Below are positions 9,455 through 48,170 of a DNA stretch of 49,747 nucleotides, piece by piece (positions within the stretch are counted from its first letter, which is position 1; every line of letters starts with the position of its first letter). This stretch comes from Vulcanimicrobiales bacterium. GTDB taxonomy: Bacteria > Vulcanimicrobiota > Vulcanimicrobiia > Vulcanimicrobiales > Vulcanimicrobiaceae. A program made the position numbers and the translations under genes. The stretch is from contig JBBRLI010000020.1 in the NCBI GenBank assembly GCA_038231455.1, positions 1-49,747 of the forward strand, written 5' to 3'. The notes below the pieces were generated by a model. That model saw nothing but the letters and a program-made list of their open reading frames with translations. It was not told where the DNA came from and searched no databases.

Positions 9455-9942
9455 TGGCCTCGCCGATCTACTCAAAGCCGTATGTCTACAAAGCGACGAT
9501 CGCCTGGTCGGGTTCAAAGTCGGGCGCGACCGTGGACTACGCATCGTATTCGCGCGAATACGAGATCGAAATCGAAGGCAAGCCGACGCTGCGCGGTTCG
9601 GCCGATAAGCCGTTTCGCGGCGATGCGAGCCTGCACAATCCCGAAGACCTGATGCTCGCCGCGATTGCCACGAGTCACATGCTCAGCTACCTTGCCAAGT
9701 GCGCGCGCGCCGACGTCCACGTCGTCTCTTATTGCGATGAAGCGACCGCGACGATGTCGGCTGAGGGCGGGCCAATGCGCTTCACCGACGTACTCCTCAA
9801 GCCGGTCGTGGTTATCAGTGCGGGCGATCTGTTTATCGCGCGCAAGCTCCACGTCGGCGCGCGTGAAGAGTGTTTCATCGCGAATTCCGTAAACTTCACC
9901 GTCAGAAATGAAGCGACCGTCGAAATGCAGGACCAGCCATGA
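9454..9942 (+). CDS. OsmC/Ohr family protein with first catalytic Cys replaced by Ser
   Basis: GSADKPFRGD-x-x-x-HNPEDLMLAAIATSHMLSYL and EECFIANSV. GTG overlaps the TAG of the reductase gene. Confidence 0.85.
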   Translation: MASPIYSKPYVYKATIAWSGSKSGATVDYASYSREYEIEIEGKPTLRGSADKPFRGDASLHNPEDLMLAAIATSHMLSYLAKCARADVHVVSYCDEATATMSAEGGPMRFTDVLLKPVVVISAGDLFIARKLHVGAREECFIANSVNFTVRNEATVEMQDQP

Positions 9943-10011
9943 ACAGCGCGACATCGGGGCCCCACGCAACGCGTGGGGGGCGCGGAGCCTGGGGCGCAGC
10001 GGCTTTCAAGC

Positions 10012-10935: not shown

Positions 10936-12344
10936 TCGTGCTGCGCCGTCTTGGCGCAACGCAGGCGCACGACCGCGAGCGCGAGGCGGTCGGGGTTCCG
11001 CTGCGTCGCGTCCTCGGAGTGTGGGGACTCATCGCGGTTGGCCTCGGCACGATGCTGGGCGGCGTCTTCACGACGATTGGGTCGGGGATGAACGCCGCAG
11101 GGCCTGGCGTGATTGCATCGTTTGCGCTTTCGGGTCTTGCGTGTATTTTCGTTGCGCTCTGTTATGCAGAACTTGCATCGATGGTTCCGATAGCGGGCAG
11201 CGCCTACACCTATGCGTATGCGACGCTCGGTGAATTCGTCGCGTGGATTATCGGCTGGGATCTGATCCTCGAATACGGCATCAGCGTCGCGCCGACGGCG
11301 GCGGCTTGGTCCGGTTACGTCCAGAGTTTTCTCTCCGGTTTCGGCGTTAATCTTCCGGATTGGGCGCGCGTCGCACACGTCCTCACCCCGAGCGGGGCGA
11401 TCGATTTTTCCCATTTACAGATCGACGTGCCGGCGATCGCGATCATTTTAACGATCACCGCACTCCTCGCAATCGGGATCGACGAATCTTCGCGGACGAA
11501 TTCGATCATGGTCGGTATTCAGGTTCTCGCAATCGTCATTTTTATCGTCGCGCTCTTTGGCTCGGTGCAACCGGTGCTTTTCACGCCGTTCATTCCAACG
11601 GGCGGCGCAGGCATCCTCACCGGCGCTGCGCTCGTCTTCTTCGCGTACATCGGCTTCGATACGGTCACGGTTGCATCGGAAGAGGCGAAGCGCCCCGCAA
11701 TCGACGTGCCGCGCGCGATCGTCGGCTCGCTGATCGTTGGGATGATCTTGTATCTTGCGATCGCTTACGTAACGGTGGGCCTCGTGCCGTGGAAGGCAAT
11801 CGATCCCAACGCCGGGATGGCCGATGCGGTCAAACACGCGGGTAATCCGCGCTGGCTTGCAGCGATCGTCTTCGCCGGTGCCTTTGCCGGTACGACGACG
11901 GTGATGCTCACCTCACTGCTCGGGCAAGTGCGAATTTTTTACGTGATGGCGCGCGACCGCATGCTGCCGCCATTCGTCGCGCACGTCCATAAACGCACGC
12001 AGACGCCGGTGCGTACGACGATTGCAACCGGAATACTCGTTGCAATTCTTGCCGGTGTCATACCGCTCGAAGCGCTCCTGGCACTCGTCAATATCGGTAC
12101 GCTCTCAGCCTTTACGATCGTCTGCATCGGCGTGCTGTTCTTACGCGTGCGCAAGCCCGAAGCGAAGCGGCCGTTCCGTGCTCCGCTGGTGTTCGTTACC
12201 GCTCCGCTCGGTGCGATCTTGTGCATCGGGATCATGACGGGTCTCAGCGCTGCGACGTGGATTCGCTTCGTCGTTTGGTTCGCCGTCGGCGTTGCGGTTT
12301 ACGCGGCGTACGGCTATCGTCATTCGCTGTTGCGCAAGACGTGA
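10932..12344 (+). CDS. APC-family amino acid permease (cationic/YhdG-like)
   Basis: CYAELASMVPIAGSAYTY, FFAYIGFD, RIFYVMARD and LVNIGTL motifs, with about 12 hydrophobic segments. Confidence 0.9.
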   Translation: MIVLRRLGATQAHDREREAVGVPLRRVLGVWGLIAVGLGTMLGGVFTTIGSGMNAAGPGVIASFALSGLACIFVALCYAELASMVPIAGSAYTYAYATLGEFVAWIIGWDLILEYGISVAPTAAAWSGYVQSFLSGFGVNLPDWARVAHVLTPSGAIDFSHLQIDVPAIAIILTITALLAIGIDESSRTNSIMVGIQVLAIVIFIVALFGSVQPVLFTPFIPTGGAGILTGAALVFFAYIGFDTVTVASEEAKRPAIDVPRAIVGSLIVGMILYLAIAYVTVGLVPWKAIDPNAGMADAVKHAGNPRWLAAIVFAGAFAGTTTVMLTSLLGQVRIFYVMARDRMLPPFVAHVHKRTQTPVRTTIATGILVAILAGVIPLEALLALVNIGTLSAFTIVCIGVLFLRVRKPEAKRPFRAPLVFVTAPLGAILCIGIMTGLSAATWIRFVVWFAVGVAVYAAYGYRHSLLRKT

Positions 12345-35175: not shown

Positions 35176-35874
35176 TTACGGTCCGGATCGCGTGTTAGCG
35201 CGTTGGATGCTGCGCGCGAGATCTGGTGGCAACAGCCACGCTGAATCGAGTGACATCGCAATGTCGCCGTGCTTCCAACGCGGGCGTGGAATGCGGTGAA
35301 TCACGATGTGACGGTGGCCATCGTATTTTGCGATCGTCGAGAACACCGGGCCTTTTTCACCGCGGGATTCGGAGATGACAATCGGTGTTTTGCCGCGATG
35401 AAGCGGCGCTTCGTACCAAAGCGTTACCGCCGATCCGGTCGGATCGGAAACCGTCGCGTCGCGAAACCGAGTGCCCGCCGGTAAGCCCGCTGGAAGAACG
35501 ATCCGAAAGTGGATTGAGCGCTGCGCCTGCGCGAGCGATTGCGGTACGAGTTCCCTCGAGGTCATCTTCAACGGCGTTCGCGATGTCTTGACGTGCGGTA
35601 ACGTCGCCGCCATGAGCGCGTTGATCAGCCGCGCCGACATCGCATCGGAAGCTGGCTTGACCGCGCGAGAAATGCTTGGAACGAAGAAGAGGATGCCGCA
35701 AAATGCGAGCGCCGAAGCCGCGAACGCAAACGGCGACGCCCTCAACCGGCGCGACACTCTCGTGCCTCGCCGCAGTTCGTCTGCGCCTTGAAATACGTCG
35801 CGCGGGAATTCGGGGATCGGGACATGCTCGAAGCGGCGGTTGAGGACAAACGCGATTTCTTGCTCGATCGTCAT
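35176..35874 (-). CDS. Putative membrane-anchored anti-sigma factor
   Basis: Coupled (ATGA overlap) downstream of the ECF sigma. Short cytoplasmic N-terminus, one TM helix, extracytoplasmic domain (F-x-I-x-LP-x-GLP-x-G). Confidence 0.65.
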   Translation of the reverse strand: MTIEQEIAFVLNRRFEHVPIPEFPRDVFQGADELRRGTRVSRRLRASPFAFAASALAFCGILFFVPSISRAVKPASDAMSARLINALMAATLPHVKTSRTPLKMTSRELVPQSLAQAQRSIHFRIVLPAGLPAGTRFRDATVSDPTGSAVTLWYEAPLHRGKTPIVISESRGEKGPVFSTIAKYDGHRHIVIHRIPRPRWKHGDIAMSLDSAWLLPPDLARSIQRANTRSGP

Positions 35875-36431
35875 GGCATCGACTCCGTTTGGTGCGTAGC
35901 GTTCAGGCGAATTTCGACGAGCGGGCGGAGCCGCGTGCGCGCGAGAGCAAGGCGAAATCGGACCGTTGGTGCGGGAATGCCCAAGGCTTGACCGACTTCT
36001 CGACTCGAGAGTCCGATAAAATAGTGCAACTCGAGCGGTAGCCGGAGCCACTCCGGCAGCGTACCGATGGCGGCGAACAAATCCAAGCGATCGAGGCTTG
36101 CACCCGTCGCGTCGATTGTCGGCGCGTCAACGAGCGGCGCGCGGCGTTCGCCGTCGCGCCGCATCCGACGCGCGCGATCGCGGGCGCGGGAGACGACCGT
36201 ACGATACGCCCAGGCGGGAAAGGCATCGATTTGCCGCAGATCTGCTAGCGCCGCGCAAACCGCAATGCAAGCGTCTTGCGCCGCTTCTTCGGCGGCTTGC
36301 GTGTCGCCGAGAATCGACCATGCGATTCGATATGCATTTGGCCAGAGCGCCCGCGCGAGCGTTTCGCGCGCCGGGGCTCCACCAAGCGCGGCTGCTCGCG
36401 CGAGATCGACTAGCGTATCGAGGCCGCTCAT
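35871..36431 (-). CDS. ECF sigma-70 factor
   Basis: Region 2 (AEEAAQDA...FPAWAYR) and region 4 (LP...GLSSREVGQALGIPAPTVRFRL). Confidence 0.9.
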   Translation of the reverse strand: MSGLDTLVDLARAAALGGAPARETLARALWPNAYRIAWSILGDTQAAEEAAQDACIAVCAALADLRQIDAFPAWAYRTVVSRARDRARRMRRDGERRAPLVDAPTIDATGASLDRLDLFAAIGTLPEWLRLPLELHYFIGLSSREVGQALGIPAPTVRFRLALARTRLRPLVEIRLNATHQTESMP

Positions 36432-36439
36432 AGCCACAG

Positions 36440-36472: not shown

Positions 36473-38197
36473 TTAGACGATTTTGAGTTGGTAGATCGTG
36501 ATTTCGTCGTCGCGGCCGCGGATTTTCGCGACCATTTTATCGGCCGGATAATTGAGCTTCGATGCGAGGTACGTCGGTTCGTCGACAAAGATTGCATCGG
36601 GCGGAGCGGCTGCTTGGAGACGTGATGCGAGATTCACCGCGTCTCCGATGACCGTGTAGTCCATGCGCTTTGCCGATCCGATGTGTCCCGCAACGACGTC
36701 GCCCGTAGCAAGGCCGACCGAAATATGTAGTGGACGGCCGAGTTTACTTTCGAGACGCCCAACGATGTCGTTCAGTTCGACTGCCGCTTTGATCGCGCGC
36801 GTCGCATCGTCGCCTCTGACGTTCGGTGGCCCGAAGACGGCCATGATGCCGTCGCCGTAAAATTTATCGAGTAAACCTTCGTAGCGGAAAATCGTCGCAA
36901 CGGCTTCATCAAGATAGGTATTGAGAATGTCGACGACTTGCTCGGCAGGCATGTGCGAGGCCATCTTCGTGAAGTCGCGGATATCGGCGAACATGATCGT
37001 AGCGGGCTGACGTTCGCCGCCGAGTTTGATGTTATCCGGCTGGCGCATCAGCGACTCGACGACGTGCGGTGCAAGGTAGCGCGAGAAGGCCTCTTGCACG
37101 GCGTGACTGCGTTTGATGTCTTCCTGGTGCATCTCTTCGAGCGCGCGTCGTTCGGTCATATCCGTTACCGCGATCGCGGCACCGCCGGGAATATCGCCTT
37201 TTTCAAGCGATGCGATCCGGACTTCGAGTGCCAGTTCGCCGCGCGTCGCATGACGGCCAACCATATTGTAGTGGCCGCCGAAACCGTGACCCGATCCAAG
37301 GAACGTCGTAATGCCGGGGACGAGCGCGTCGAGCCCCCGTTCGGGCTGGCCGACCATCGATGTCGGGATGATGCCGAACGTATTGCCGGCGGCCTCGTTG
37401 AAGGTCGTGATCGTACCGGCTTTGTCGGTGGTGACGACGCCGCTCGTAATCGATTCGAGGATCTGCGTTTGAAACGCCTCGAGACGCGAGATCTCCGCGA
37501 GTCGTAGGGCCTGTTCTTTGAAGAGTCGGGCGTTGTCGATTGCAAGTGCCGCTTGGTGCGCGAAAGCGAGAATGAGCTGCGGATCTCCGCGATGGAAGAG
37601 ATTCGGTGTGATGCGCGAGTCGAGGTATACGACGCCGATCGAGACATCGCGTAGTTTGAGGGGCACGCAGATAATCGAGCGCAGCGCGAGCGTCTGAATC
37701 GATTGCGATGCCTCAAAGCGCGGGTCGGTCTGCGCGTCGGTCGTAAAAACGGGTTCGCCGCTTTCGGCCACTTTGCGCACGATCGACTGTGAGATCTTCG
37801 CATCGTTCGGATCGTCGGGATTGATGTTGTGTGCGATCGCTACGGCGAACTTGCCATCATCGTCGCGCAAGACGACGAAGCCGCGATCGGCTTTCATCAC
37901 CTCCACCGCAGCGTCGAGCACGTCTTTGAGAACGTGGTCGAGGTCGAGCGACGAGTTGACGATCGAGGAAACGCGCGTGAGCATTAACGCTTTTTGAATC
38001 TCGCGCTCCGTGCGATCCGTCATCGCGCTCACTTTGCTGAGCAGCGAGGTGTTTTCGAGCGAGAGCGTATCGAGCGCGAGCAGCGCTCGATCGATTTCAG
38101 CGGACAGCGCTGCGTCGCGCGCGCCGACGCGTGTGCGAATCGCTTCGAGTACCGTTTTTGCAACGTCGGCGGGGGCAGGACTGTGTTCGGTTGCCAT
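36473..38197 (-). CDS. GAF-PAS class III adenylate/guanylate cyclase
   Basis: GAF domain (ADRGFVVL, SIICVPL, AIDNARL), PAS domain (ESITSGVVTTD..FNEAA) and cyclase motifs MFADIRDFT, DKFYGDG, DYTVIGDAVNLASRL. Confidence 0.92.
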   Translation of the reverse strand: MATEHSPAPADVAKTVLEAIRTRVGARDAALSAEIDRALLALDTLSLENTSLLSKVSAMTDRTEREIQKALMLTRVSSIVNSSLDLDHVLKDVLDAAVEVMKADRGFVVLRDDDGKFAVAIAHNINPDDPNDAKISQSIVRKVAESGEPVFTTDAQTDPRFEASQSIQTLALRSIICVPLKLRDVSIGVVYLDSRITPNLFHRGDPQLILAFAHQAALAIDNARLFKEQALRLAEISRLEAFQTQILESITSGVVTTDKAGTITTFNEAAGNTFGIIPTSMVGQPERGLDALVPGITTFLGSGHGFGGHYNMVGRHATRGELALEVRIASLEKGDIPGGAAIAVTDMTERRALEEMHQEDIKRSHAVQEAFSRYLAPHVVESLMRQPDNIKLGGERQPATIMFADIRDFTKMASHMPAEQVVDILNTYLDEAVATIFRYEGLLDKFYGDGIMAVFGPPNVRGDDATRAIKAAVELNDIVGRLESKLGRPLHISVGLATGDVVAGHIGSAKRMDYTVIGDAVNLASRLQAAAPPDAIFVDEPTYLASKLNYPADKMVAKIRGRDDEITIYQLKIV

Positions 38198-38652
38198 CAG
38201 ATGCAGCAGTACAGGACGCGGGTGCCGTACGAGTCGTACCAATTCGCCGGAAGAAATTCGAGGACCGCGTTTGCGGCATCGGCTGGGACGAGGAACGAGA
38301 GATTGCTCGTAAACACTTCGCTTGGCGAGAGAAGCCCGTCTTGCGAGAGATCGATCGCGCCAAGGTGGGGCCGGGGCGTCGGCGTGTAGCGCTTGTCCCC
38401 GACGATCAATTGGAACTCGGGCAAACGAAAGGCTTGCGGTCGGACATTCGACGGATTCTTGAGCCGTGCGTTCTCGACGACGACGTATTGCTGACCGGGC
38501 GGACCGGGATCGACGACGGTTCCGCTACTCGTGATGCCGAGCGGCAAGCGAATTGTAACTGCTGCGAGGGCAGAAATCGGCGCGGCGATCGTTACAGCGA
38601 GCGCTAGAATTGCGGTAAGGATGCGAAAGGTCACGTCCGTTAACCATCCCAT
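38197..38652 (-). CDS. Exported Ig-like (DUF4352-like) protein
   Basis: Signal peptide (ALA-A), beta-rich body, and TGATG coupling to the cyclase. Start is 38652 or 38634. Confidence 0.6.
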   Translation of the reverse strand: MGWLTDVTFRILTAILALAVTIAAPISALAAVTIRLPLGITSSGTVVDPGPPGQQYVVVENARLKNPSNVRPQAFRLPEFQLIVGDKRYTPTPRPHLGAIDLSQDGLLSPSEVFTSNLSFLVPADAANAVLEFLPANWYDSYGTRVLYCCI

Positions 38653-38836
38653 TCGCGCGGCCCGTGCCTGCCAATTAAGGAGAAGACAGCGGTGGTGGAG
38701 GGGTCCGCTGCCTTCTAAAAATTCGACGGCCGCGCTCCAACTACGGTTCCTTCTTTTGTCGCTCCACCCTGCGGCAAGGCAAGTGCGGCAACGAGCCGGC
38801 CATTTTCCGGCCATGCAGGCCCGGTACGCTTCGCCT

Positions 38837-39028
38837 ATGACGATCGATACCGGAGCCAATACCGAGGCCGCGGCGCTTGCCGCCCGCGACCGGCTGACGG
38901 AGCAGACCCGCAGCGGCGCCACAACCGAACGGGGAATGGCGGGGATCGCAACGACGGCGATCTTTGAAGAAGCATTGCTCGCCGCAATCAAAGCCCGCTT
39001 GGCCGAACTCAAAGCGATCGCCAAATGA
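38837..39028 (+). CDS. flgB: Miniature FlgB-like proximal rod protein
   Basis: First gene before flgC. ERGMAGIATTAIFEEALLAAIKARLAELKAIAK resembles the FlgB C-terminal helix. TACGCT -10 lies 6 nt upstream. Confidence 0.5.
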   Translation: MTIDTGANTEAAALAARDRLTEQTRSGATTERGMAGIATTAIFEEALLAAIKARLAELKAIAK

Positions 39029-39384
39029 GCGAGTTCGATGTGCTCGGCTCCGCCGCGCGCGGGATGGCGCTGCAGCGCGGAATGCTCGATATCGCGGCGC
39101 GCAACGTCGCCGCAGCCCAAGCCTCAACACCCGATCATCCGTATCCGCGCCTGGTCGCGGAGATTGCGGCCGCGGGCGAGGATGGCGAGGACGCGATCCC
39201 CGGCGACCCGGACGCTCAGGCAGACGACGCGCCGCTGCAGACGCATCGCGCTCCGGGTTCGGCCGATGCACTCACGGAGATGATCGCGGTGCTCGATGCG
39301 CAGCGTTCGTACGAGGCTAGCGCTTCTATTTTCGATACCGGGAAGCGGATCGCCGAACGCGCGATCGATCTGGGTCGCTCGTGA
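39025..39384 (+). CDS. flgC: Flagellar basal-body rod protein FlgC (divergent)
   Basis: SAARGMALQRGMLDIAARNVAAA at the N-terminus and EMIAVLDAQRSYEAS...AIDLGR at the C-terminus. Confidence 0.85.
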   Translation: MSEFDVLGSAARGMALQRGMLDIAARNVAAAQASTPDHPYPRLVAEIAAAGEDGEDAIPGDPDAQADDAPLQTHRAPGSADALTEMIAVLDAQRSYEASASIFDTGKRIAERAIDLGRS

Positions 39385-39647
39385 AGATCGAACAACTCGT
39401 CCCCGATACCGCGCCGTTTGCTGCGGCTCGCGTTCCGAACGACTCGACGTTTATCGGATTGGTTGACGCGGCGGGAGCGCAGCTCGAACGCGCCGATCGC
39501 GCGGAGGCCGCGTTTACGAATGGTCGCGGCGGGATCACCGAGATGATGATCGAGCGCGCGCGTGCCGACATCGCGTTGCAAATTGCGACGACCGCGGCGT
39601 CGCGCGCAACGCAAGCGCTCAATTCCGTGCTCGGGATGCAGATCTGA
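39381..39647 (+). CDS. fliE: Flagellar hook-basal body protein FliE
   Basis: EMMIERARADIALQIA...ALNSVLGMQI matches the FliE C-terminus; position after flgC. Confidence 0.82.
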   Translation: MKIEQLVPDTAPFAAARVPNDSTFIGLVDAAGAQLERADRAEAAFTNGRGGITEMMIERARADIALQIATTAASRATQALNSVLGMQI

Positions 39648-41107
39648 TGGCGACGGCACTTGCGCGTTGGAACTCCGCCGCGCCACGCGTCCGTTTGGCG
39701 ATTAGCGCAATCGCAGCCGCAATCGTGCTGGGGATCTTCGGTTCGTTCGCCGCGACCCGCGATACGCGCGTTACGCTCTTCAGCGCCGCGCTTAAACCCG
39801 ACCAGCTTGCGGAGGTCGAGGAACGTCTTGCGGCGTGGACCGTTCCGTTTGCGCCGATCCCCGACAACGTGCGCGTCGATGCTCATCGACGCTCGGAACT
39901 TCTCCTGCGGCTCTCACTTGCGGGCGTCCCGCACCCGCATCTTGCGACCTCGGATGAAACGCTTGCGAAGATCGGTGCGCTGACGCCGCAAGCGGTCCTC
40001 GAAGCGCAGACGCGCGATGGCCTTGCCGCGGATCTCGCGCTTGGTTTGCGCGGCATAACGGGGATCGCCGATGCGCGCGTGGTGATCGCGCCGGCGCGCG
40101 CCGGGATGTACGCCGACGAACGCTCGCATGACGCGAGCGCAAGCGTCCGCATCACGCTCACGCCCGGCGCGCATCTCGGCGCGAACGTCGTGCTCGGCAT
40201 CCGGCGCTTTGTCGCGGGCGGCGTACCCGGACTCGAACCGGATCGGGTGACGGTTCTCGACGATCGCGGTCTGGCGCTTGGAGAACCAACCGATACGCAC
40301 GATGATGGAGCAACGCAGCTGGAGCTCCAGACGGCGCTTGATGCGGCGTTCGGCGCGGGCGCGACGATCGTACGCGTGCATCGCGAACCGGCGGGCGTGC
40401 ATCGCGATATCCGCGATGTGCGACGTACACCCGTCGGCGGCGGCGCGATCGTGATGACCACAAACGACGAACGGTATGCGAGCGATCGAAAACGGTATTC
40501 GCGCTCCCATGCAAGCGAAGATCGCGGCAGCGAGACGCGCGAGCTGCACGAAGAGACCTTACCCGCGACGACCGCGCGGGTAACGATTGCCGTATTCGTC
40601 GATGCGGCACGGTCGCTCGATATCAAAAAGATACGCGACCTCGCCGCCGCCACTTCCGGAATCGATCGCGCGCGCGGCGACGCGCTCACGGTCGAGGCCG
40701 TGCGGTTCGCGGTATCTACACCCGCGACTCTTCCGCCCAGCTCTTTCCCCGCTCTTCCGTACCTCGCGTCGCTTGCACCACAAGCGCTCGTTGCGCTGGC
40801 AATCGTGACGACGATCGGCTTTGGAGCACGACCGGCGTATCGTCTGGCCGCGCGCGTCCTCGAACGTGCGAGCGTCGCGGTCGCGCGCGAACGCGTTACC
40901 GGCTTCGCACCGACCCACGTGCGCGGGGCGCTCCTCGGCGAGCCGCCGCACACGGCGGCAGCGATCATCTCCGCACTTCCTGCTGCGACGGCAACGGCCG
41001 TGCTCGAACTCTATCCGCCCGAAGAGCGCGCGGCGATCGTGCGACGACTCACGCGCGCGGCAAATCCGCTCCTGCCGGACACCGAGGATCTCTTCCGTGC
41101 CCGGTAA
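39647..41107 (+). CDS. fliF: FliF MS-ring protein with C-terminal FliG-middle-domain-like segment
   Basis: TM1, LRLSLAGVP, ARVVIA, ASASVRITL, VAGGVPGLEPDRVTVLDDRG, GID-x-x-RGD, TM2, then GEPPHTAAAIISAL...VLELYPPEERAAIVRRL. Confidence 0.85.
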   Translation: MATALARWNSAAPRVRLAISAIAAAIVLGIFGSFAATRDTRVTLFSAALKPDQLAEVEERLAAWTVPFAPIPDNVRVDAHRRSELLLRLSLAGVPHPHLATSDETLAKIGALTPQAVLEAQTRDGLAADLALGLRGITGIADARVVIAPARAGMYADERSHDASASVRITLTPGAHLGANVVLGIRRFVAGGVPGLEPDRVTVLDDRGLALGEPTDTHDDGATQLELQTALDAAFGAGATIVRVHREPAGVHRDIRDVRRTPVGGGAIVMTTNDERYASDRKRYSRSHASEDRGSETRELHEETLPATTARVTIAVFVDAARSLDIKKIRDLAAATSGIDRARGDALTVEAVRFAVSTPATLPPSSFPALPYLASLAPQALVALAIVTTIGFGARPAYRLAARVLERASVAVARERVTGFAPTHVRGALLGEPPHTAAAIISALPAATATAVLELYPPEERAAIVRRLTRAANPLLPDTEDLFRAR

Positions 41108-41609
41108 CTTTATCACGCTTGCGGAGATGTTACGTCCGTCGGCTGTAGCACGAGAGCAAATTGAAAGCGCGGGGCCGAGCGTCTCGATTGAGTCGTCCTG
41201 CGCGCCCGTCGTACCGGAGCACCCCGAGGAGCGTCGATTCGACGATATCGTTACGCTTGCCATTTCCGATGCCCGTCGCTTTCGCGCCGTGCTCGCGGAC
41301 GCAATCTCACATGCAGCTGTATCGCTCGTTCGCGAGATTGCAAGTGACGTTCTCGCACGCGAGCTTCAATTTGCACCGTGTGCGATGGACGCGCTCGTTG
41401 TGCGTCTGGTGAACGATCACATGAATGCGGTTCCGCTTCGCGTTCGCATCAGCCCGCACGATCAATTTTTTACAAGCGACTTTCCGTTCGTAGTCGACGC
41501 CGCGCTGCAACCCGGCGATGCGATTCTCGAATGCACGAGCGGAGCGATCGACGCGCGCTTAGGCGTGCGGCTTGCCGACGTCATCGAACGCGCGAGTGAA
41601 CGCCGTTGA
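41097..41609 (+). CDS. fliH: FliH/SctL-like ATPase stator
   Basis: Position before fliI. LRVRISPHD...DAALQPGDAILECTSGAIDARL is the typical FliH C-terminus. Confidence 0.75.
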   Translation: MPGNFITLAEMLRPSAVAREQIESAGPSVSIESSCAPVVPEHPEERRFDDIVTLAISDARRFRAVLADAISHAAVSLVREIASDVLARELQFAPCAMDALVVRLVNDHMNAVPLRVRISPHDQFFTSDFPFVVDAALQPGDAILECTSGAIDARLGVRLADVIERASERR

Positions 41610-42874
41610 TCGGTCGTGGAATCGGGCACATTATCGCGACGCACGCGTTGCTGCTCGAGGCGCATGTTCCCAGTGCCCGCGTCGGCGATGGCGTGCGGAT
41701 CGTTCGCCACGATGGCCACACGATCGACGCGCACGTTGCTTCGCTTGGCGAGGGCAAGGCGCTTCTCGTGCCGCACGGGGCCACCGACGGCATCGCGCTT
41801 GGCGACCGCGCCGAAATCGATCGCTCTGCGGCGACCCTCGTCCTCGGTACCCCGCTGCTGGGTCGCGCAATCGCGCCGGATGGCTCGCCGCTCGACGCCC
41901 GCCCCGCGCCGCGCGGTGAGCGTTACGCCGTCCGCGGCTCCATCCCTACGCCGGCTGAGCGCCTCCCCGGCCGCACGTTGTTCGTAACCGGCGTTCGCGC
42001 AATCGATGGGCCACTCACGCTCGCCCGTGGCGCGCGGGTCGGACTCTTTGGAGCGCCCGGCGCGGGCAAATCGACCTTACTCGAATCGATCGTCGCCGGC
42101 GCCCAAGCCGACGCGGTGGTCGTCGCGCTGATCGGTGAACGCGGGCGCGAGGCCGAGCGGTGGCTCGCCGATCTGGATGCTCGCGTGTCGATCGTCTGCG
42201 CGACGAGCGACCGGAGCCCAGCCGAACGCCTAAGAGCAGCGGACGTCGCCTTTGCGCAGGCCGAGCGGCTGCGTGACCGCGGGCTCGACGTGCTCTTAGT
42301 CGTCGATTCGCTCGCTCGGATCGCTGCCGCTGCGCGCGACATGGCGATCGCCCTTGGCGAGCCGGTCGGACGCGGTGGCTACCCGCCGAGCGTATTCGCG
42401 CGCCAGGCCGGGCTCCTCGAACGGGCCGGCGTGACGGCCAGTGGAGCAATCACCCTCATCGCGACGGTACTCAGCGATGGGGCCGACGAGCGCGAACCGG
42501 TCTCTGATGCGGCTCGGGCCGCGCTCGACGGTCACATCGCCCTTTCCGAGCGCCTCGCCCGCGCAGGGCACTTTCCGGCAATCGACCTCCCGCGCAGCAC
42601 CAGCCGGACCATGCTCGACGTCGTCGACGCCGATCATGCCCGGAGCGCTTCGCGGCTGCGCGACGCGCTCGCCTTGCTCGAAGAAACACGCGAGGCCCGA
42701 ATGTTCGGCCTCGACGCGGGCGGCGGCGACGTCCATCTCGAACGAGTCGTGCGCGCAGAATCGCTCATTTCCGCCTTTTTGCGCCAGGACCGAACGCCAG
42801 CACCATTTGCGGAAACGCTCATGGAAATGCACCGAGTCGCCGAATACCTAAGGGCCGATGGATATTACAGCTGA
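41606..42874 (+). CDS. fliI: FliI/SctN export ATPase
   Basis: Walker A GAPGAGKST, LIGERGRE, ATSD, Walker B LLVVDS, GYPPSVF, LDGHIALS and GHFPAID. Confidence 0.92.
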   Translation: MIGRGIGHIIATHALLLEAHVPSARVGDGVRIVRHDGHTIDAHVASLGEGKALLVPHGATDGIALGDRAEIDRSAATLVLGTPLLGRAIAPDGSPLDARPAPRGERYAVRGSIPTPAERLPGRTLFVTGVRAIDGPLTLARGARVGLFGAPGAGKSTLLESIVAGAQADAVVVALIGERGREAERWLADLDARVSIVCATSDRSPAERLRAADVAFAQAERLRDRGLDVLLVVDSLARIAAAARDMAIALGEPVGRGGYPPSVFARQAGLLERAGVTASGAITLIATVLSDGADEREPVSDAARAALDGHIALSERLARAGHFPAIDLPRSTSRTMLDVVDADHARSASRLRDALALLEETREARMFGLDAGGGDVHLERVVRAESLISAFLRQDRTPAPFAETLMEMHRVAEYLRADGYYS

Positions 42875-43469
42875 GATTTCCGCGATCCAAAATCGCATCG
42901 CGACGATTACCGGAGCCCCGCCCGATGACGTGGTCACGCCCGAGGCGGCGCGCGCGTTCGCGCAGCACGTCGCAAGTGCGCTCCGCCCCGGCACGCAGTA
43001 CACGCCTGGCGGGCCGCAAACCGGCACTCCGGCTGGTGGTGCGCTGGCGGAAGCCCCCGGCGGCCCTGCTCCGGTCGCGCCCGAACAGATCGATGCGCTC
43101 GTCGGCCAAAACGCCGGAACGTGGAATGTCGATCCGGCGCTCGTAAAAGCAATCATCGCGAACGAATCCGGTTTCAATGCGAACGCCACCTCACCGGTCG
43201 GCGCGCAAGGCCTCATGCAGCTCATGCCCGAGACCGCAAAATCGCTCGGCGTTTCGGATAGTTACGATCCGGCCCAAAACGTTGCCGGCGGCACGCGCTA
43301 TCTTAAAGGTCTGCTCGATCGCTTCAACGGTAACATGCGCCTCGCGGTCGCTGCCTACAACGCGGGCCCCGGCGCCGTGCAGAAATACGGCGACGTTCCG
43401 CCCTATGCGGAAACGCAGAACTACGTCCAAAACGTCCTCGGTTCGTACGAGAAGTATCGCGCGCGCTAA
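42858..43469 (+). CDS. Lytic transglycosylase (SLT domain)
   Basis: AIIANESGF, GAQGLMQLMP, AAYNAGPG and ETQNYV motifs. Confidence 0.93.
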   Translation: MDITAEISAIQNRIATITGAPPDDVVTPEAARAFAQHVASALRPGTQYTPGGPQTGTPAGGALAEAPGGPAPVAPEQIDALVGQNAGTWNVDPALVKAIIANESGFNANATSPVGAQGLMQLMPETAKSLGVSDSYDPAQNVAGGTRYLKGLLDRFNGNMRLAVAAYNAGPGAVQKYGDVPPYAETQNYVQNVLGSYEKYRAR

Positions 43470-45030
43470 GCGCGCGCTACTCGTTCTCCTCGGCGCGCTC
43501 GCACTTGCTACGTCGCCGGCGCTCGCACGACGCGATGCGCCACCGGCGATCGCCGAGGTCTTCGCGCGCTACGCTCGCGCGAGCGGCACGGATCGAGCCC
43601 CGACGACGCTCGAGACCGCAGGAACGCTACGCGGCGACGGACTCAACGGAACGTTTCATAGTTGGCGTGATGGCACAAACGAGCGCGATGAAGAACACTT
43701 AGGCGAACGCAGCGAGACAACGCTGCGGCTGGGGTCGCGCTTGTTCGTTCAAAACGCGTCGGGCAACGTGCGCGAACTCAAAGGCCTGTTGTATCGCCGC
43801 GCACTCACGAGCGACTACGTCGATTCGGATGCGTTTCTCCGCGAACCCGAGCGCGCGCGATTCGTCGCGACCAAGATGATCGACAAACGCACGGCCATCG
43901 GCATCGAAGTTCGTGCGCCCGGCGGCGAGCCCGAGACGCTGTGGTTCGATGCGGAGAACGGCCTGATCGTGCGGCTCGAATATCTCGACGGCGACGGTCC
44001 GACAACGGTCGACATGCGGGACTACCGAAACGTCGAGGGCGTGCTCGTTGCGTTCATGACGGTGACGTCGGATGGCGACACGGCCTTTGACATCGTCGAG
44101 ACGACGACGAGCGTGCTCGTGAACAAGCCGGTCGATGCGGCGCACTTCGCGCCGCTGACGCCGCGCGTGCTCTTGGGATCGGGCGTCCAGACGCTGCCGC
44201 TCGAAGAACGCGGCGGCCACTATTACGTGCGCGTCAAGGTCAACGGTAAGCCGTACGTGTTCCTCGTCGATACCGGAGCGCAGAGTCTCTTGCTCGATTC
44301 ACACGTGGCAAAAGAGTTGGCGATCCCCGAAGAAGGTTCGCTCGAAGTGCGGGGCACGGCACGCGGCGGCGGATTGCACACGGTGCACATCGCAAGTCTG
44401 GGCGTCGGCGATCTGCATCTCGACGACATCGTTGCAAGCTCGCTTGATATCGGCGATAGTGCGGCCGGCGCTCTGCGGTTCGATGGCATACTGGGCTACC
44501 CGTTTTTTGCCGCGGCGCTTGTCGAACTCGATTTTGGCAAGAAGACGATGCGGGTTGGCGCGCCGGGATCGTTCGTTCCGCGCGGCGAGCGCGTGCCGAT
44601 CGAGCTCGATCGCGCGATTCCCGAGGCGATCCTTGGCGTGAACGGTCACTACCGGGTACCGTTCATCATCGATACGGGATCGAGTTCCGATGTGTTGCTG
44701 TTTCGCTGGTTCGTCGATCTGCATCCCGGTGTCGTGCCTTTTACCGCGCAGCAAGGGCTCAACTACGGACTCGGGGGCGCGACGAGTGCGTACCGCTCGT
44801 CTCTTGATGAACTGACGATCGGTTCGACGCCGATGTACCACCGGTATACCGACGTGATGCTCGCAAAACAGGGCGCGTTTGCCGACCGCTTCGATGCGGG
44901 CAACGTTGGCCTGGGCGTCCTGCACAATTTCGTACTGACGCTCGATGAATCCAATCTTGCGTTTTTCATCGAACGCGCGAGTGACTTCGATGACGGGCGC
45001 AGCCGGAAGCAATTCGCAACGGCGCGGTAA
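43405..45030 (+). CDS. Exported protein with tandem retropepsin-like aspartic protease domains
   Basis: Signal-like LLVLLGALALATSPALA, two DTG motifs (FLVDTGA, FIIDTGS) and DGILG/GNVG flaps. Start uncertain. Confidence 0.8.
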   Translation: MRKRRTTSKTSSVRTRSIARAKRALLVLLGALALATSPALARRDAPPAIAEVFARYARASGTDRAPTTLETAGTLRGDGLNGTFHSWRDGTNERDEEHLGERSETTLRLGSRLFVQNASGNVRELKGLLYRRALTSDYVDSDAFLREPERARFVATKMIDKRTAIGIEVRAPGGEPETLWFDAENGLIVRLEYLDGDGPTTVDMRDYRNVEGVLVAFMTVTSDGDTAFDIVETTTSVLVNKPVDAAHFAPLTPRVLLGSGVQTLPLEERGGHYYVRVKVNGKPYVFLVDTGAQSLLLDSHVAKELAIPEEGSLEVRGTARGGGLHTVHIASLGVGDLHLDDIVASSLDIGDSAAGALRFDGILGYPFFAAALVELDFGKKTMRVGAPGSFVPRGERVPIELDRAIPEAILGVNGHYRVPFIIDTGSSSDVLLFRWFVDLHPGVVPFTAQQGLNYGLGGATSAYRSSLDELTIGSTPMYHRYTDVMLAKQGAFADRFDAGNVGLGVLHNFVLTLDESNLAFFIERASDFDDGRSRKQFATAR

Positions 45031-45076
45031 TATTCGCGTCACGATCGCGCCGCACAATCGGTTTCAGGAGGAACCG

Positions 45077-45619
45077 ATGCCAACGATTCAACCATCCGCC
45101 TTCGCTGTCGTCGCGACGCATCTCGCACAGACGGATCGACGCACGCTCTCGCAAGCCTGGTTCGATGCGCTGCATCTTGCGCGCGAACAATCGCCCCACC
45201 CCTCACCCACGCGGCGCACGCTGCACGAAGGCAACGCGCGTGCAGAAGCGGGTGGCCTCAGTCCAGTCTCACAGGCCAACGATCGCAAGCATGTTGCTGA
45301 AGCGAGCAAAAATATCCGCACCGACGATCGCTCGCAGCGTCCGATCGGTCGCGAACGTCGCATCGAACGCAGCGAACTCTCGCATCGTATCGAACGCGCG
45401 GTCGTTCGCCGTTCACCGGCGCCAGTTGCCTCAATGGTGATTCGCGCGGATGACGGGCGCGTGCAACTGCTCGTTCGGACGGATGGCGATCGAACGCGCG
45501 TCGTTGCGCTCTGCCTTCCCGCCCAGCGCGTCGCCGTCGAAGCCGCCCTCGCCCACGCGCGATTTGCGCTAGCTCGCCGCGGCATCGCTGTCGATGCCGA
45601 TGTGCGGAGCGTGGCCTGA
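45077..45619 (+). CDS. Short FliK/SctP-like length-control protein
   Basis: Low-complexity N-terminal half. C-terminal GRVQLLVRTDGDRTRVVALC...VEAALAHARFALARRGIAV resembles the T3S4 domain. AGGAGG RBS; operon position fits fliK. Confidence 0.5.
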   Translation: MPTIQPSAFAVVATHLAQTDRRTLSQAWFDALHLAREQSPHPSPTRRTLHEGNARAEAGGLSPVSQANDRKHVAEASKNIRTDDRSQRPIGRERRIERSELSHRIERAVVRRSPAPVASMVIRADDGRVQLLVRTDGDRTRVVALCLPAQRVAVEAALAHARFALARRGIAVDADVRSVA

Positions 45620-46350
45620 TGCTTAATCCCGCATCGCTCGACGCACTTGCCCGCATCGCCGCCCGCGCAAACGACGTGCTCTCTGCCTACACACCGGGCG
45701 CGATGCCCGCGCATACCGACGTGATGGCTTCGCCGAGAGCACCCGATCTCGCGACGAGTCCACTTAGCGTTGTGGCGCCGGATGGCACCTACTTTCTCAC
45801 GCAAAACCGGGATGGTTCGCGCGCGTATACGCGCCTTGGCGATCTGCAGATTCGAGACGGTGTGCTCGGCGCACCGGACGGTTCGCCGATGCTCGGTTTT
45901 GCGGGGCAAGCGCGAACGGCCGGCGCCGTCGCGCAGCCACTCAAACTTCCCGAGGGGGATCGACTGCTCGGCCGAACGGCAAGCGCCCGCATCGAATCCG
46001 ACGGCAGCTTTGTCTACACGCGTCCGGCGATCGATCCGCGCACTGGCGAACGCACGAACGAACGCGTGGTCATCGGAACGCTCGCGCTCGCGCGCTTTCC
46101 CGCCGGCACGCAAGCAATGCGGATCGATGCAACGCACGTGAGCGCCCCGCCCGGCATCAACCCGCATATCGGAACGCCGAGCGACGGCACCTTCGCCGGA
46201 CTTGCCACCTATTCGCGCGACCGCAGCGGGATCGATATCGACGCGGGTTTGCAGAAGCTGCAAGAAGCGTATCTTGCCTTCGGCGCATTGCGCGCAGCGA
46301 CGAGCGCTCGCGGCAACGTGGAAAAAAGTGCGATGGATTTGGTCAAATGA
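45619..46350 (+). CDS. FlgE/FlgF/FlgG-family hook/rod protein (minimal, 243 aa)
   Basis: YTPG, GTYFL...YTRLGDL...G-x-L...DG-x-PMLG, IGTLALARF, and C-terminal IDIDAGLQKLQEAY. Confidence 0.75.
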   Translation: MLNPASLDALARIAARANDVLSAYTPGAMPAHTDVMASPRAPDLATSPLSVVAPDGTYFLTQNRDGSRAYTRLGDLQIRDGVLGAPDGSPMLGFAGQARTAGAVAQPLKLPEGDRLLGRTASARIESDGSFVYTRPAIDPRTGERTNERVVIGTLALARFPAGTQAMRIDATHVSAPPGINPHIGTPSDGTFAGLATYSRDRSGIDIDAGLQKLQEAYLAFGALRAATSARGNVEKSAMDLVK

Positions 46351-47141
46351 TCGCAGACTTGGTGTTCCCGCCCGCCCGCGGTCGGATCCGCCCGGCGCGT
46401 TTCGTGCGCCGCTCGCACGTCCCGCTCGCCGCCGCGTGCGTGGTCGCGAGTAGCTTGCGCGAGACGCTCCGCGAGCTGGTGGGCGCCTGCGAGGTGGTGC
46501 TGGGTGAACCCGCGGCAATCGACGAGATGGCTTGGCGTGCGCTCGCACGCGGGAGCCACTGTTTCCTGACCCGCGGCCGACGAACGGATATCGTGCTCGT
46601 CATCCCGATCCTCGACGCCCGGAGACTCGTCTTGCGGGCATTCGGCGAGGCCAGTGAGTACGATAGCGCACCGATCTCCGCGCTCGAATCGCATGCGCTC
46701 GAGCGGATCGCGGCCCGCTGTGCACATGCCTTCGATGCGCTGTGTGCGGAGCGCCGCGGGCCGGCGATTGCGATCCCAGCACGTGACATCCCCGCGTGCG
46801 CGGCATACTTCGATGTTCGCGTGAGCGCGCCGCTCCCCATCACCTTGGGAATCGGCATCGTCCGCGACTTACCCGTCCCCGCGGCGGGGCCGGGCATCGA
46901 TTCCTTAAAGCTGCGTGAGATTCTGGTTGAGGCACGGGCCGAATTCGCCTCAGGAATGGTATCGGCAAGGGACCTCGCCATGCTCCGCGTCGGCGATGTC
47001 GTGCGCTTGGACACGAAGGTTGGGGCTCCGGCCGCGCTTAAAGTTGGTCCAACGACGATAGCCGTGGGAAATTGCGGCTTCGCTGACGCGCACACGGCGT
47101 TTCTCGTGCGCACATCCTCCACGATCGGAGATTCCCCGTGA
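46347..47141 (+). CDS. fliM: FliM/SctQ-like C-ring protein (divergent)
   Basis: C-terminal SpoA domain ([13 protein letters not shown]); lies directly upstream of fliN. Confidence 0.65.
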
Positions 47142-47404
47142 TGGCCCAGGAGCAGAGCAAGAACCTGGACTTGCTCATGAACGTCCCGCTCAAAATTACG
47201 GCGGAACTCGGCACGTGCAAGATGCTCGTGCAAGATATTCTAAAGCTCGGCACGGGTTCCGTGGTCGAACTCGATCGCCTCGCTGGCGGTCCCGTCGACT
47301 TACTCGTCAACGATAAACTTGTCGCGCGCGGTGAAGTCGTCGCGATCGATGAGAACTTCGGCGTTCGCGTCACCGAATTGATCGAGCACGTCCAGCACCC
47401 GTAA
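47138..47404 (+). CDS. fliN: C-ring protein FliN
   Basis: [17 protein letters not shown]...[11 protein letters not shown]-x-PVDLLVN...ARGEVV...FGVRVTE. Confidence 0.95.
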
Positions 47405-47428
47405 GGTTTAAAACCGATCGATCTCCAG

Positions 47429-47458
47429 AAGCGCGGCGAAAGTCGCGTTTTTTGTTTG
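47429..47458 (+). terminator. Intrinsic terminator after fliN
   Basis: AAGCGCGGC-GAAA-GTCGCGTTT (two G-U pairs) followed by TTTGTTT. Confidence 0.75.
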
Positions 47459-47507
47459 GTCGCATCGCGGTAATACACGTGCCATCTCTTCGCGCCAACA
47501 TCGCTAC

Positions 47508-48170
47508 ATGGACGCACTCTTCGCCCTAGGAACGCACGCGGGTCGCTCTTCGCTCCCGCTCGATGTGCTCGCCTCGCTCACGCTGCTCTCGATCGCACCG
47601 TTCGTGCTCGTGCTCTCGACGGCGTTTGTACGAATCATCGTGGTGCTCTCGCTCGTGCGCTCGGCACTTGGCGCATCATCGCTCCCGCCGAACACCGTGC
47701 TCACGGGACTTGCGTTGATTCTTACCTTCGTTATCATGACGCCGACATTTGAAGCCATCTCGCACGATGCGATTGCTCCGTACGCGGCCGGTAAGCTTTC
47801 TCAGCATGCGTTCCTGGACCGCGCCGCCGGCCCGCTGCGTGCATTTATGTTGCGGCAAACGAAGACCAAGGACATCACGGTATTCGCGCGTGTCGCGCGA
47901 CGACCACCGGGCGAGATCGCAACTGCCGCTCCGCTCGTGGTGCTTATCCCCGCGTTCATCGTCGGCGAATTGCGATCGGCCTTTGCGATCGGGGTTGCGC
48001 TCTATCTGCCGTTTATCGCGATCGACCTTGCCGTCGCATCAATTTTGATGGGCCTTGGAATGTTTATGCTCTCGCCGCCAGTGATCTCGCTACCGTGTAA
48101 GTTGCTTCTCTTCGTTCTCGTCGATGGCTGGGCGATTGTTTGCGGTGGCGTTGTCACGAGTTTTCGCTAG
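47508..48170 (+). CDS. fliP: Export-gate protein FliP/SctR
   Basis: TAFVRIIVVLSLVRSALG, PPNTVL, LRAFMLRQT, IPAFIVGEL and SLPCKLLLFVLVDGW motifs. Confidence 0.93.
   Translation: MDALFALGTHAGRSSLPLDVLASLTLLSIAPFVLVLSTAFVRIIVVLSLVRSALGASSLPPNTVLTGLALILTFVIMTPTFEAISHDAIAPYAAGKLSQHAFLDRAAGPLRAFMLRQTKTKDITVFARVARRPPGEIATAAPLVVLIPAFIVGELRSAFAIGVALYLPFIAIDLAVASILMGLGMFMLSPPVISLPCKLLLFVLVDGWAIVCGGVVTSFR

Follow-up and report, generated by a model that had tools for sequence, protein, structure and literature searches.

The injectisome is reportedly a non-rotating type III secretion system (T3SS) that arose from a flagellar ancestor, a view attributed to Abby and Rocha; its origin from the flagellum is a long-standing question, and few living intermediates are at hand. 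Basal bodies that have neither filament nor motor function occur in the endosymbiont Buchnera aphidicola, where they are proposed to be protein exporters; the FliG and hook genes are kept there in a genome subject to erosion. In Lysobacter enzymogenes OH11, which has no flagella, flagellar T3SS (fT3SS) genes are kept and, in the consulted sections of the report, a role in non-flagellar protein secretion is proposed for them (PMC7688988). According to a survey of flagellar loss, 11% of non-motile species have rotor proteins but no filaments; the consulted part of that survey does not mention the phylum Vulcanimicrobiota (10.1101/2024.12.05.626484). The only cultured member of this phylum, Vulcanimicrobium alpinus, has type IV pili, no flagella and no flagellin gene according to the main text of its description, which contains no discussion of an fT3SS (PMC9758169). 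Here we analyse a stretch of 49,747 nucleotides from a Vulcanimicrobiales bacterium (the window), which is the entire contig C20 of a metagenome-assembled genome (MAG) of 3.71 Mb in 106 contigs (G000, 93.7% complete). Judged from its genes, region 38837–48170 is probably the chief operon of a type III export apparatus that derives from the flagellum, is maintained and does not rotate. We refer to this second, reduced flagellar-type apparatus as RED and found no description of it in the literature on Eremiobacterota, Vulcanimicrobium, Baltobacterales and WPS-2 outside subscription journals and supplements.

Thirteen open reading frames (ORFs) on the + strand fill 38837–48170, overlapping their neighbours by 1–65 nt or separated from them by gaps of 19–103 nt, and no stop or frameshift interrupts them. 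They encode, in this order, a FlgB-like protein, FlgC, FliE, FliF with a piece of FliG, FliH, FliI, a lytic transglycosylase (SLT), an aspartyl protease, a FliK-like protein, a 243-aa protein, a FliM-like protein, FliN and FliP. Pfam assigns 11 of the 13 (the match of the 243-aa protein is weak), leaving the 63-aa FlgB-like and the 180-aa FliK-like proteins without a match. Three starts were re-set: fliH to 41127 (160 aa), the protease gene to 43405 (541 aa, with signal peptide) and the fliK-like gene to 45077 (180 aa, with AGGAGG upstream). Separate fliG, fliJ, flgD, fliL, fliO, motAB and cheY genes are absent from the cluster. A preliminary description, made by reading the letters, had already given the tightly overlapping order, the intact frames, these absences and the sizes of 63, about 180 and 243 aa; all of these stand, and the sizes are conserved among orthologs.

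The whole-genome search recommended in that description located the remaining parts. On contig C23 follow, one after the other, 40 residues left over from the fliP 3′ end, metF, a gene pair for a sigma and an anti-sigma factor, fliQ, fliR, flhB, flhA, secD and secF; because the congener G001 has the same genes on one contig, downstream of fliP, C20 and C23 are most likely neighbours. RED-type FlgF and FlgG, together with a FliA-like sigma factor, are encoded on contig C7. The genome also holds a canonical flagellar set. Contig C9 carries fliF, fliG, fliI, fliJ, flgD, flgE, fliN, fliP, fliQ and flhA, this fliG containing the sole FliG_C domain of the genome; rod genes and FlgI are found on C16, and five flagellin matches exceed the cut-off. 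G000 has two FlhA and two FliQ in total, and the proteins of the two sets are 26–47% identical where comparable. Since the ordinary set is complete, RED is a second system and not the missing part of one flagellum. We rejected the idea that the cluster supplies the ordinary flagellum with parts that it lacks, as the ordinary set owns copies of every shared part. Likewise, the genes missing from the cluster do not combine with it into one ordinary flagellum, the outcome that would have contradicted the preliminary description: they are part of another set, complete in itself, that has fliF, fliI, fliN, fliP, fliQ and flhA of its own.

RED was traced through 401 genomes of the phylum by its FliF, with a threshold of E ≤ 1e-20 that was chosen because RED matches reach 1e-49 or better and ordinary FliF 1e-11 or worse. 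RED-type FliF is present in 305 of the 401: 266 of 296 genomes in family f1, 5 of 5 in f2 and 29 of 30 in f3, the three families that make up the class (300 of 331 sampled genomes), and 4 of 69 in other families. FliG_C was found in 134/296 f1, 4/5 f2 and 0/30 f3 genomes, and it is missing from 7 of 16 single-contig genomes with RED. Like f3, the genera g35 (FliG_C 0/80, RED FliF 72/80), g44 (0/12 and 11/12), g49 (0/11 and 10/11) and g38 (0/9 and 5/9) combine RED FliF with an absence of FliG_C. These tallies include genomes flagged as unpublished (12 in the RED FliF count, 6 in the FliG_C count and 3 in the list of FliF-like matches), and no sequence-level claim rests on them.

Gene order is conserved as well. 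The series flgB-like, flgC, fliE, fliF, fliH, fliI, (SLT), protease, fliK-like, 243-aa gene, fliM-like, fliN is kept in 8/8 f1/f2 loci, with fliP-fliQ-fliR-flhB-flhA directly after it in f2 and with metF inserted behind fliP in six f1 loci. Family f3 has the same genes minus the protease, split over two loci, one of which ends in the SLT gene; the second comprises a 160-aa gene, a rod-like gene, fliM-like, fliN, fliPQR, flhBA and secDF. FliF orthologs measure 466–494 aa and the lengths of RED parts are stable throughout. The ratio of non-synonymous to synonymous substitution rates (dN/dS), calculated against congener G001 (dS 0.6–1.8; re-set starts for fliH and the protease), is 0.00–0.28 for all 15 RED genes compared, and an internal stop occurs in 1 of the best 39 FliF-like matches. 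These data argue that RED is maintained under purifying selection and vertically inherited through a whole class of Vulcanimicrobiota. The preliminary description had likewise called the system maintained, and the signs of decay named there, a dN/dS near 1 and random pseudogenisation, were not seen.

Among the genomes with RED as their only system are three on a single contig (G005, G007 and G016) and one on six (G037). Each of these four has one FlhA and exactly three Flg_bbr_C proteins. Pfam models for FliG_C and FlgI gave no match in these four genomes, nor did Flagellin_N, for which G010, a genome with both systems, was the sole match among five searched; FlgD was not matched in any of six RED-only genomes. 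The MotA_ExbB model matches once in each of five RED-only genomes. Its neighbours were annotated in G005, where the gene is an exbB heading an exbB-exbD-exbD-tonB operon. FliJ exceeded its cut-off in G000, G010 and G051 only; five of six RED-only genomes gave no match above it. Having neither the FliG_C torque surface nor a stator partner, RED should be unable to rotate, as had been proposed from the operon itself. It lacks FlgD, hook, junction, filament and P ring and should therefore build nothing longer than a rod that matches the width of the periplasm.

A satellite operon in the RED-only genomes encodes FlgF-like and FlgG-like proteins, a Rod-binding (FlgJ-N-like) protein and a sigma factor of the FliA/WhiG family. 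The FlgF/FlgG pair was annotated in G037; Flg_bbr_C proteins elsewhere were read as FlgC, FlgF and FlgG. The sigma factor scores 165 bits in G037 and 123 bits in G005 with TIGR02479, both below the cut-off of 189.6.

RED encodes a complete type III export core, consisting of gate, ATPase complex, MS-ring and cytoplasmic platform. Pfam matches were obtained for all six of FliP, FliQ, FliR, FlhA, FlhB and the ATPase FliI. FliI (422 aa, 41606–42874; ATP-synt_ab 2.1e-61, T3SS_ATPase_C 1.5e-5) keeps its Walker A (GAPGAGKS), Walker B and GERGRE motifs and has a dN/dS of 0.13; NCBIfam scores it at 357.7 bits as SctN and 350.3 bits as FliI, in both cases below the respective cut-off. FliH (160 aa, 41127–41609; Pfam FliH 4.2e-6, dN/dS 0.17) is short when compared with its 356-aa counterpart in a sister flagellar operon (see below). 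FliP (220 aa, 47508–48170; Pfam FliP 2.6e-71, dN/dS 0.03) passes the flagellar NCBIfam cut-off (232.5 bits against 217.45) and reaches 177 bits as SctR. FlhA scores 615 bits with the flagellar and 469 bits with the SctV model, and FlhB, in which the NPTH cleavage site is present, 219 bits with the flagellar and 225 bits with the Sct model. Most RED parts fall below both flagellar and Sct cut-offs; FliP and FliN pass the flagellar ones. The preliminary description had said that the export ATPase, FliN and FliP keep their key motifs; for the ATPase, the motifs just named bear this out.

FliF (486 aa, 39647–41107) matches YscJ_FliF (7.5e-21), YscJ_FliF_C (6.6e-9) and, at its cytoplasmic end, FliG_M (4.9e-7), with a dN/dS of 0.14. 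The tail, residues ∼ 396–486, carries the ARM motif of the FliG middle domain: the Pfam match spans residues 423–470 and covers residues 2–49 of FliG_M only, and residues 421–472 align with residues 118–169 of FliG from a complete flagellar operon, the start of its FliG_M (hhalign E 6.3e-4). From the ARM motif to the C-terminal end of FliF there are 14 residues. Among 11 orthologs across the class the tail belongs to the best-conserved stretches of FliF, and neither FliF nor any other part of the cluster gave a Pfam match to FliG_C. The reading of the preliminary description, a FliG part on FliF with no separate fliG and no torque domain, is therefore borne out.

The FliM-like protein (264 aa, 46347–47141) has FliMN_C (9.8e-9) as its sole Pfam match. 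In AlphaFold2 (AF2) models of nine orthologs, residues 23–172 are predicted with confidence [predicted local distance difference test (pLDDT) 85–93], and in a Foldseek search with the model Salmonella FliM came out on top (1.1e-9), ahead of FliM middle domains and of CheC/CheX. Because FliM ranks first in the search with the AF2 model, we interpret the protein as a CheC-like FliM middle domain followed by a C-terminal SpoA domain. Its dN/dS is 0.14 and its orthologs measure 255–269 aa. Residues 1–22 have low pLDDT and are poorly conserved among the nine orthologs; the N-terminal CheY-P binding peptide of FliM was not spotted there by eye, no formal motif search having been made. FliN (88 aa, 47138–47404; FliMN_C 2.6e-25) scores 103 bits against the NCBIfam fliN cut-off of 84 and is 100% identical in G001. 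The preliminary description held every motility-specific part to be reduced or absent; this is so for FliG, FliJ, FlgD and the stator, and does not apply to the FliM middle domain, which is retained by fold.

Co-folding the FliF tail with the FliM-like middle domain gave a score of 0.46 (runs 0.42–0.55), the best of three controls reaching 0.00; the runs share at least 40% of contacts and the partner has a pLDDT of at least 83. In calibration, 58 of the 80 complexes of solved structure and 2 of the 110 mismatched pairs reached the mark, and at scores of ≤ 0.60 there were 7 of the 80 solved complexes and both mismatches; scores in this range are wrong more often than not, except for pairs that were already likely. 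FliG–FliM complexes have already been solved, so the pass may reflect the memory of the model. The result lends weak support to a contact between tail and middle domain.

FliF and FliG sequences are also found on one polypeptide in Planctomycetota, whose natural fusions (ESM Atlas clusters) are 630–691 aa long and contain FliG_C in 31–94% of members. The RED tail, in contrast, is ∼ 90 aa long and has the first FliG_M ARM only, without FliG_C. Engineered FliF–FliG fusions have reportedly been made in Salmonella and Vibrio; a literature search on Planctomycetes and FliF–FliG fusions returned nothing relevant.

The rod set comprises FlgC, FliE and a FlgB remnant in the cluster and FlgF and FlgG in the satellite operon. 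FlgC (proximal rod protein, 119 aa, 39025–39384) is matched by Flg_bbr_C (2e-5) and, below the cut-off, by NCBIfam FlgC (3.5e-10), FliE (88 aa, 39381–39647) by Pfam FliE (2.5e-5); their dN/dS values are 0.16 and 0.13. The FlgB-like protein (63 aa, 38837–39028) has orthologs of 63–71 aa in seven f1/f2 loci (dN/dS 0.09). In f3 its position is taken by a 136-aa protein, to whose C-terminal half it aligns and whose N-terminal half, in our own reading, resembles FlgB. FlgB survives in RED only as this 63-aa C-terminal remnant. The 243-aa rod/hook-family axial protein (45619–46350; FlgE/F/G D1 0.0025, below the cut-off; FlgEFG subfamily 5.8e-5) has D0/D1 size only and a dN/dS of 0.12. It matches a 272-aa D1/Flg_bbr_C protein at the same position of the sister flagellar operon (BLASTP 2e-7). 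Its interpretation as a RED-specific miniaturised hook was ruled out by this homolog in a complete operon, and with it the claim that the hook-position protein had been specially reduced.

The protein at the fliK position (180 aa, 45077–45619; orthologs about 184–191 aa, dN/dS 0.22) consists of a conserved N-terminal motif, a disordered stretch (39–93) and a C-terminal domain with pLDDT 81–93 in AF2. The top two Foldseek matches of this domain in the PDB are the FliK C-terminal domain (2rrl, 9.1e-4) and the switch domain of PscP (5cuk, 1.5e-3; TM 0.67, root mean square deviation 2.4 Å). By sequence, Flg_hook is weakly matched in 2 of 6 orthologs (best E 0.024), and a profile alignment with FliK of the sister operon paired the correct regions without reaching significance (hhalign E 0.61). 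The sequence evidence being weak, the family assignment rests on the fold, which points to a FliK/SctP-like protein with a T3S4 (substrate-switch) domain behind a disordered ruler.

The SLT (203 aa, 42858–43469; Pfam SLT 2e-32, dN/dS 0.06) has intact catalytic ES, GLMQ and AYNAG motifs and an N-terminal extension; manual inspection of the sequence revealed no signal peptide. Its best NCBIfam match is the flagellar assembly lytic transglycosylase (7.5e-26, below cut-off), and along its full length it shares 42.5% identity with the SLT that the sister operon encodes in the same place. The protein encoded next, at 43405–45030 (541 aa, Asp_protease_2 7e-21 in two stretches), is a secreted double retropepsin-like aspartyl protease with a signal-peptide-like N-terminus, two DTG motifs and a dN/dS of 0.08. 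It is part of the cluster at 8/8 f1/f2 loci; neither the f3 loci nor the sister flagellar operon yielded it. G000 has at least four paralog matches (C1, C3, C4 and C14), and the protein falls into clusters met most often in Vulcanimicrobiota and Planctomycetota.

The origin of RED was addressed with an FlhA/SctV tree of 23 rows: 6 RED sequences (that of G011 was left out, as its ORF call held a stop), 8 ordinary in-phylum FlhAs, 4 named FlhAs and 5 named SctVs (plasmid records). RED FlhAs form a clade [Shimodaira–Hasegawa-like approximate likelihood ratio test (SH-aLRT) 99] that is sister to one in-phylum lineage of flagellar FlhAs, 'type B', of families f6, f10, f13 and f20 (100 with LG+G4, 97 with C20 posterior mean site frequencies). 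The ordinary FlhA of G000 falls in a separate lineage, 'type A', and the five SctV references form a clade of their own (SH-aLRT 100). With its FlhA inside the flagellar FlhAs of the phylum and not in the SctV clade, a flagellar origin of RED is supported, as is the independence from the injectisome that the preliminary description had suggested. The FliI and FliP trees that it had asked for, which have no outgroup, show RED to be much diverged. Neither they nor an FlhB tree, with one partial SctU and one partial Salmonella FlhB, confirmed the sister relation seen with FlhA.

A type-B operon is complete in G043 and reads FlgB (150 aa)-FlgC (153)-FliE (122)-FliF (565)-FliG (330)-FliH (356)-FliI-FliJ (152)-SLT (205)-FliK (313)-axial protein (272)-FliM (325)-FliN and onwards. 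It has in common with RED the SLT gene behind the ATPase genes and the short axial gene behind fliK. Relative to this operon, RED appears to have lost FliG, except for one ARM, and FliJ, and to have shortened almost everything; the protease would be a gain in f1/f2.

Set against the bacterial flagellum, RED shares the Bacillus-type fla operon order and homologous FlgB, FlgC, FliE, FliF, FliH, FliI, FliK, FliM, FliN, FliP, FliQ, FliR, FlhB, FlhA, FlgF and FlgG; its FlhA lies inside the flagellar FlhAs, and its FliP and FliN pass flagellar cut-offs. It differs in the lack of the N and C domains of FliG and of FliJ, FlgD, hook, junction, cap, flagellin, P ring and stator (for the latter, neighbours were checked in G005 only), in its almost uniformly shorter proteins and inserted aspartyl protease, and in coexisting with, or outliving, an ordinary flagellum. 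By gene content RED would thus fail as a motility flagellum, having no torque FliG, stator, hook/cap or filament. With the injectisome it shares the predicted lack of rotation, flagellar ancestry, a short SctP-like ruler with T3S4 fold and a lytic transglycosylase in the cluster, and its FliI and FlhB score equally well with Sct and flagellar models. However, its FlhA lies outside the SctV clade, and the rod proteins FliE, FlgB, FlgC, FlgF and FlgG and a full-length FliF are kept. The secretin SctC, SctD, the needle SctF, tip and translocon were not seen among the 13 cluster genes or the annotated genes of C23, no genome-wide secretin search having been made. From the FlhA tree and from the parts in the cluster and on C23 we judge that RED is not an injectisome.

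Compared with the Buchnera basal bodies, RED occurs in free-living soil bacteria, has the FliF–ARM fusion and is a stable paralogous system. L. enzymogenes OH11 resembles RED, as far as the consulted text describes it, in having an fT3SS without functional flagellin, a state that RED reaches in G005, G007, G016 and G037. In the same sections, OH11 is reported still to secrete the hook cap FlgD and looks like a case of recent fliC loss (PMC7688988), whereas RED retains neither FlgD nor the hook and little of FliG, is found class-wide and forms a second system beside a normal flagellum.

We propose that FliF forms the MS-ring around the FliPQR–FlhBA gate and that FliG is reduced to the one ARM motif on the FliF tail, which would anchor FliM and FliN directly. 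FliM/FliN would recruit FliH and FliI, giving a static exporter, driven by ATPase and proton-motive force, that would first export its own rod parts (FliE, the FlgB remnant, FlgC, FlgF, FlgG and the 243-aa protein). The SLT would help to build the rod and would probably be exported by the machine too; as no signal peptide was seen on inspection, it is perhaps a type III substrate. The FliK-like ruler and cleavage of FlhB would switch export to late substrates and/or to the anti-sigma factor of the linked FliA/WhiG-like sigma factor, and a GAF-PAS cyclase encoded divergently from the operon may place RED under cyclic-nucleotide control. The cluster contains no L/P ring or secretin. We tentatively suggest, as one possibility, that in RED a flagellum was, for a second time and independently, turned into a dedicated, non-motile type III secretion organelle, at a stage lost from the injectisome lineage: rod and FliF would have kept their flagellar form, the ARM tag would dock a FliM/FliN sorting platform, the ruler would have periplasm length, a cyclase and a sigma factor would be wired to the apparatus, and cargo, possibly co-encoded hydrolases or effectors, would be delivered to the periplasm or across the outer membrane of these abundant soil bacteria.

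Several points count against a maintained, non-rotating exporter of flagellar origin. That RED assembles and exports proteins is a prediction from its genes. The 63-aa FlgB may be incompatible with a normal rod; FliJ, normally needed for efficient export, is the gene that five of six RED-only genomes lack at the Pfam cut-off, and 3 of 8 f1/f2 loci have no SLT gene in the cluster. The absences were called with Pfam models, which can miss very divergent FliG_C, stator and filament proteins, and many of the sampled genomes are MAGs. As to origin, the supports of the FlhA tree are SH-aLRT values only, the FlhB tree places RED alone on a long branch beside the single partial SctU, and the divergence of RED in FliI and FliP far exceeds that between types A and B; in view of this disagreement and divergence, the FlhA tree may suffer from long-branch effects.

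The same evidence can be read in other ways. RED might be a checkpoint or sensor, its basal body exporting an FlgM-like anti-sigma factor and thereby gating the regulon of the FliA/WhiG-like sigma factor on envelope or cyclic-nucleotide signals, with cargo secretion not its purpose. The sigma gene behind RED-type FlgF/FlgG in RED-only genomes and on C7 of G000, the substrate switch implied by the FliK-like protein and the NPTH site of FlhB, and the cyclase linked at 8 of 12 loci would all fit. We nevertheless regard this as rather unlikely: no FlgM was recognised, a 97-aa gene behind the sigma gene in G037 having no family match and no tblastn match in G000 or G005, the sigma factor scores under its 189.6 family cut-off, and some 20 genes would be a costly switch. 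A structural role, in which static MS-ring and rod form an anchor that spans the envelope, or else the core of a nanotube- or hat-like membrane structure such as has been proposed for the fT3SS core proteins of further bacteria, would explain a full rod gene set and a peptidoglycan hydrolase in the absence of L/P ring and external parts, and fT3SS-related non-flagellar structures are reported in the consulted part of one study (PMC9380563). It is unlikely in our view, since ATPase, FliM/FliN platform, ruler and FlhB switch are all under purifying selection, which ongoing, regulated export fits better than a one-time scaffold.

Nearly every RED part lies below curated flagellar cut-offs, so that a FliG C-domain, stators, hook and filament of a real but very divergent rotary flagellum might escape recognition too, and FliM and FliN are retained. 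Against such a flagellum, which we hold to be very unlikely, FliG_C, Flagellin_N, FlgD and FlgI are unmatched in three single-contig RED-only genomes, although the same models match the ordinary set of G000 and G010; the sole MotA-family gene of G005 is an ExbB beside ExbD and TonB; and the FliF tail stops 14 residues past the ARM motif. In the cultured member of the phylum, which has no flagellin gene and may or may not carry RED, flagella were not observed (PMC9758169, main text). Shortening relative to the sister operon (FlgB from 150 to 63 aa, FliH from 356 to 160, FliK from 313 to 180 and FliM from 325 to 264) and the loss of fliJ and flgD could be taken as signs of a decaying remnant of an ancestral flagellum, or of parts missing from the one ordinary flagellum of G000. 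This is hardly credible when frames are intact across the class with dN/dS of 0.00–0.28, catalytic and cleavage motifs are preserved, the ordinary flagellum owns copies of every shared part and RED persists alone in whole genera. We therefore favour the maintained, non-rotating exporter.

Upstream of the operon, 36473–38242 (− strand) encodes a GAF-PAS-class III adenylate/guanylate cyclase (Pfam Guanylate_cyc 4.8e-23, GAF 2.5e-17, PAS), divergent from the cluster. An ortholog stands beside the cluster in 8 of 12 related loci, in all three families of the class, which suggests that the cyclase is a candidate regulator acting through cyclic nucleotides. Between it and the operon lies a gene (38197–38712, − strand) for a DUF4352 protein with an N-terminal hydrophobic segment, found in genus g1 only, and beyond the cyclase gene an ECF-type (extracytoplasmic function) sigma factor gene (35871–36437). 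The presumed promoter is in the intergenic region 38713–38836, between the likely start of the DUF4352 gene and that of the flgB-like gene. In most of nine loci a GGCAAC-like hexamer was noted by eye ∼ 40–60 nt upstream of the flgB-like gene (38760–38800 in the window), perhaps the −35-like element of a promoter of the ECF type; a sigma-28-type pattern was seen upstream of the first gene in none of the nine.

Downstream, a 40-residue copy of the fliP 3′ end, 87.5% identical (window 48040–48170, C23 1877–1996), is found just before metF, and G001 has a fliP remnant (L023 6057–6165) ∼ 850 nt downstream of its intact fliP. DNA with helix–turn–helix (HTH), AraC-type and flavin mononucleotide (FMN)-reductase genes appears to have been inserted at the fliP end, duplicating the 3′ end of fliP. 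metF, for methylenetetrahydrofolate reductase, occupies the space between fliP and fliQ in six f1 loci (L003 2019–2906, L016, L017, L018, L023, L024, L027); there is no metF in the f2 locus, where fliP and fliQ abut. A pair of genes for a sigma-70-family sigma factor and a zf-HC2 anti-sigma factor lies inside the export-gate part in genus g1 (L003 4449–5599; L023 2462–3612), and a related pair is found behind fliN on the opposite strand in G006 (L025 13109–14352). The position of secD-secF behind flhA in f1 and f3 loci (L003 12920–15556; L024 647–3298; L029 7978–10512) is a linkage that holds for the class. Two − strand ORFs of G000 that match no family (9770–10900 and 11176–12324) separate flhA from secD-secF.

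Ordinary flagellar genes of the phylum also gave some observations of their own. In the closed genome G010 the ordinary FlhA matches in two adjacent pieces (C1:395882–397838; profile 2–79 and 79–655), which suggests a frameshift in the canonical FlhA of a genome where RED is intact. The single-contig genome G051, with RED and without FliG_C, has a FliJ match (C1:1307529–1307870, 6.9e-12) that may have been left behind by an ordinary flagellum lost not long ago. Many proteins in G086, G047, G050 and G043 match only the C-terminal half of FHIPEP (profile ∼ 320–656; L053–L056, for example), G086 having 19 FHIPEP matches in total. FlhA types A and B coexist in G047 (L045, L050), and G086 has two type-B copies (L048, L051); multiple flagellar systems seem to be common in the phylum.

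RED would thus be a motor-less flagellar derivative that is class-wide and under selection, that often stands beside an ordinary flagellum and that can be compared with a complete sister operon from the same phylum. It makes testable which parts a flagellar T3SS may lose and yet be maintained, whether an ARM motif carried by FliF is able to stand in for FliG as anchor of the C-ring, and what use a basal body may have that is unable to turn. For Vulcanimicrobiota (Eremiobacterota) it also means that flagellar gene counts in MAGs are no indicator of motility.

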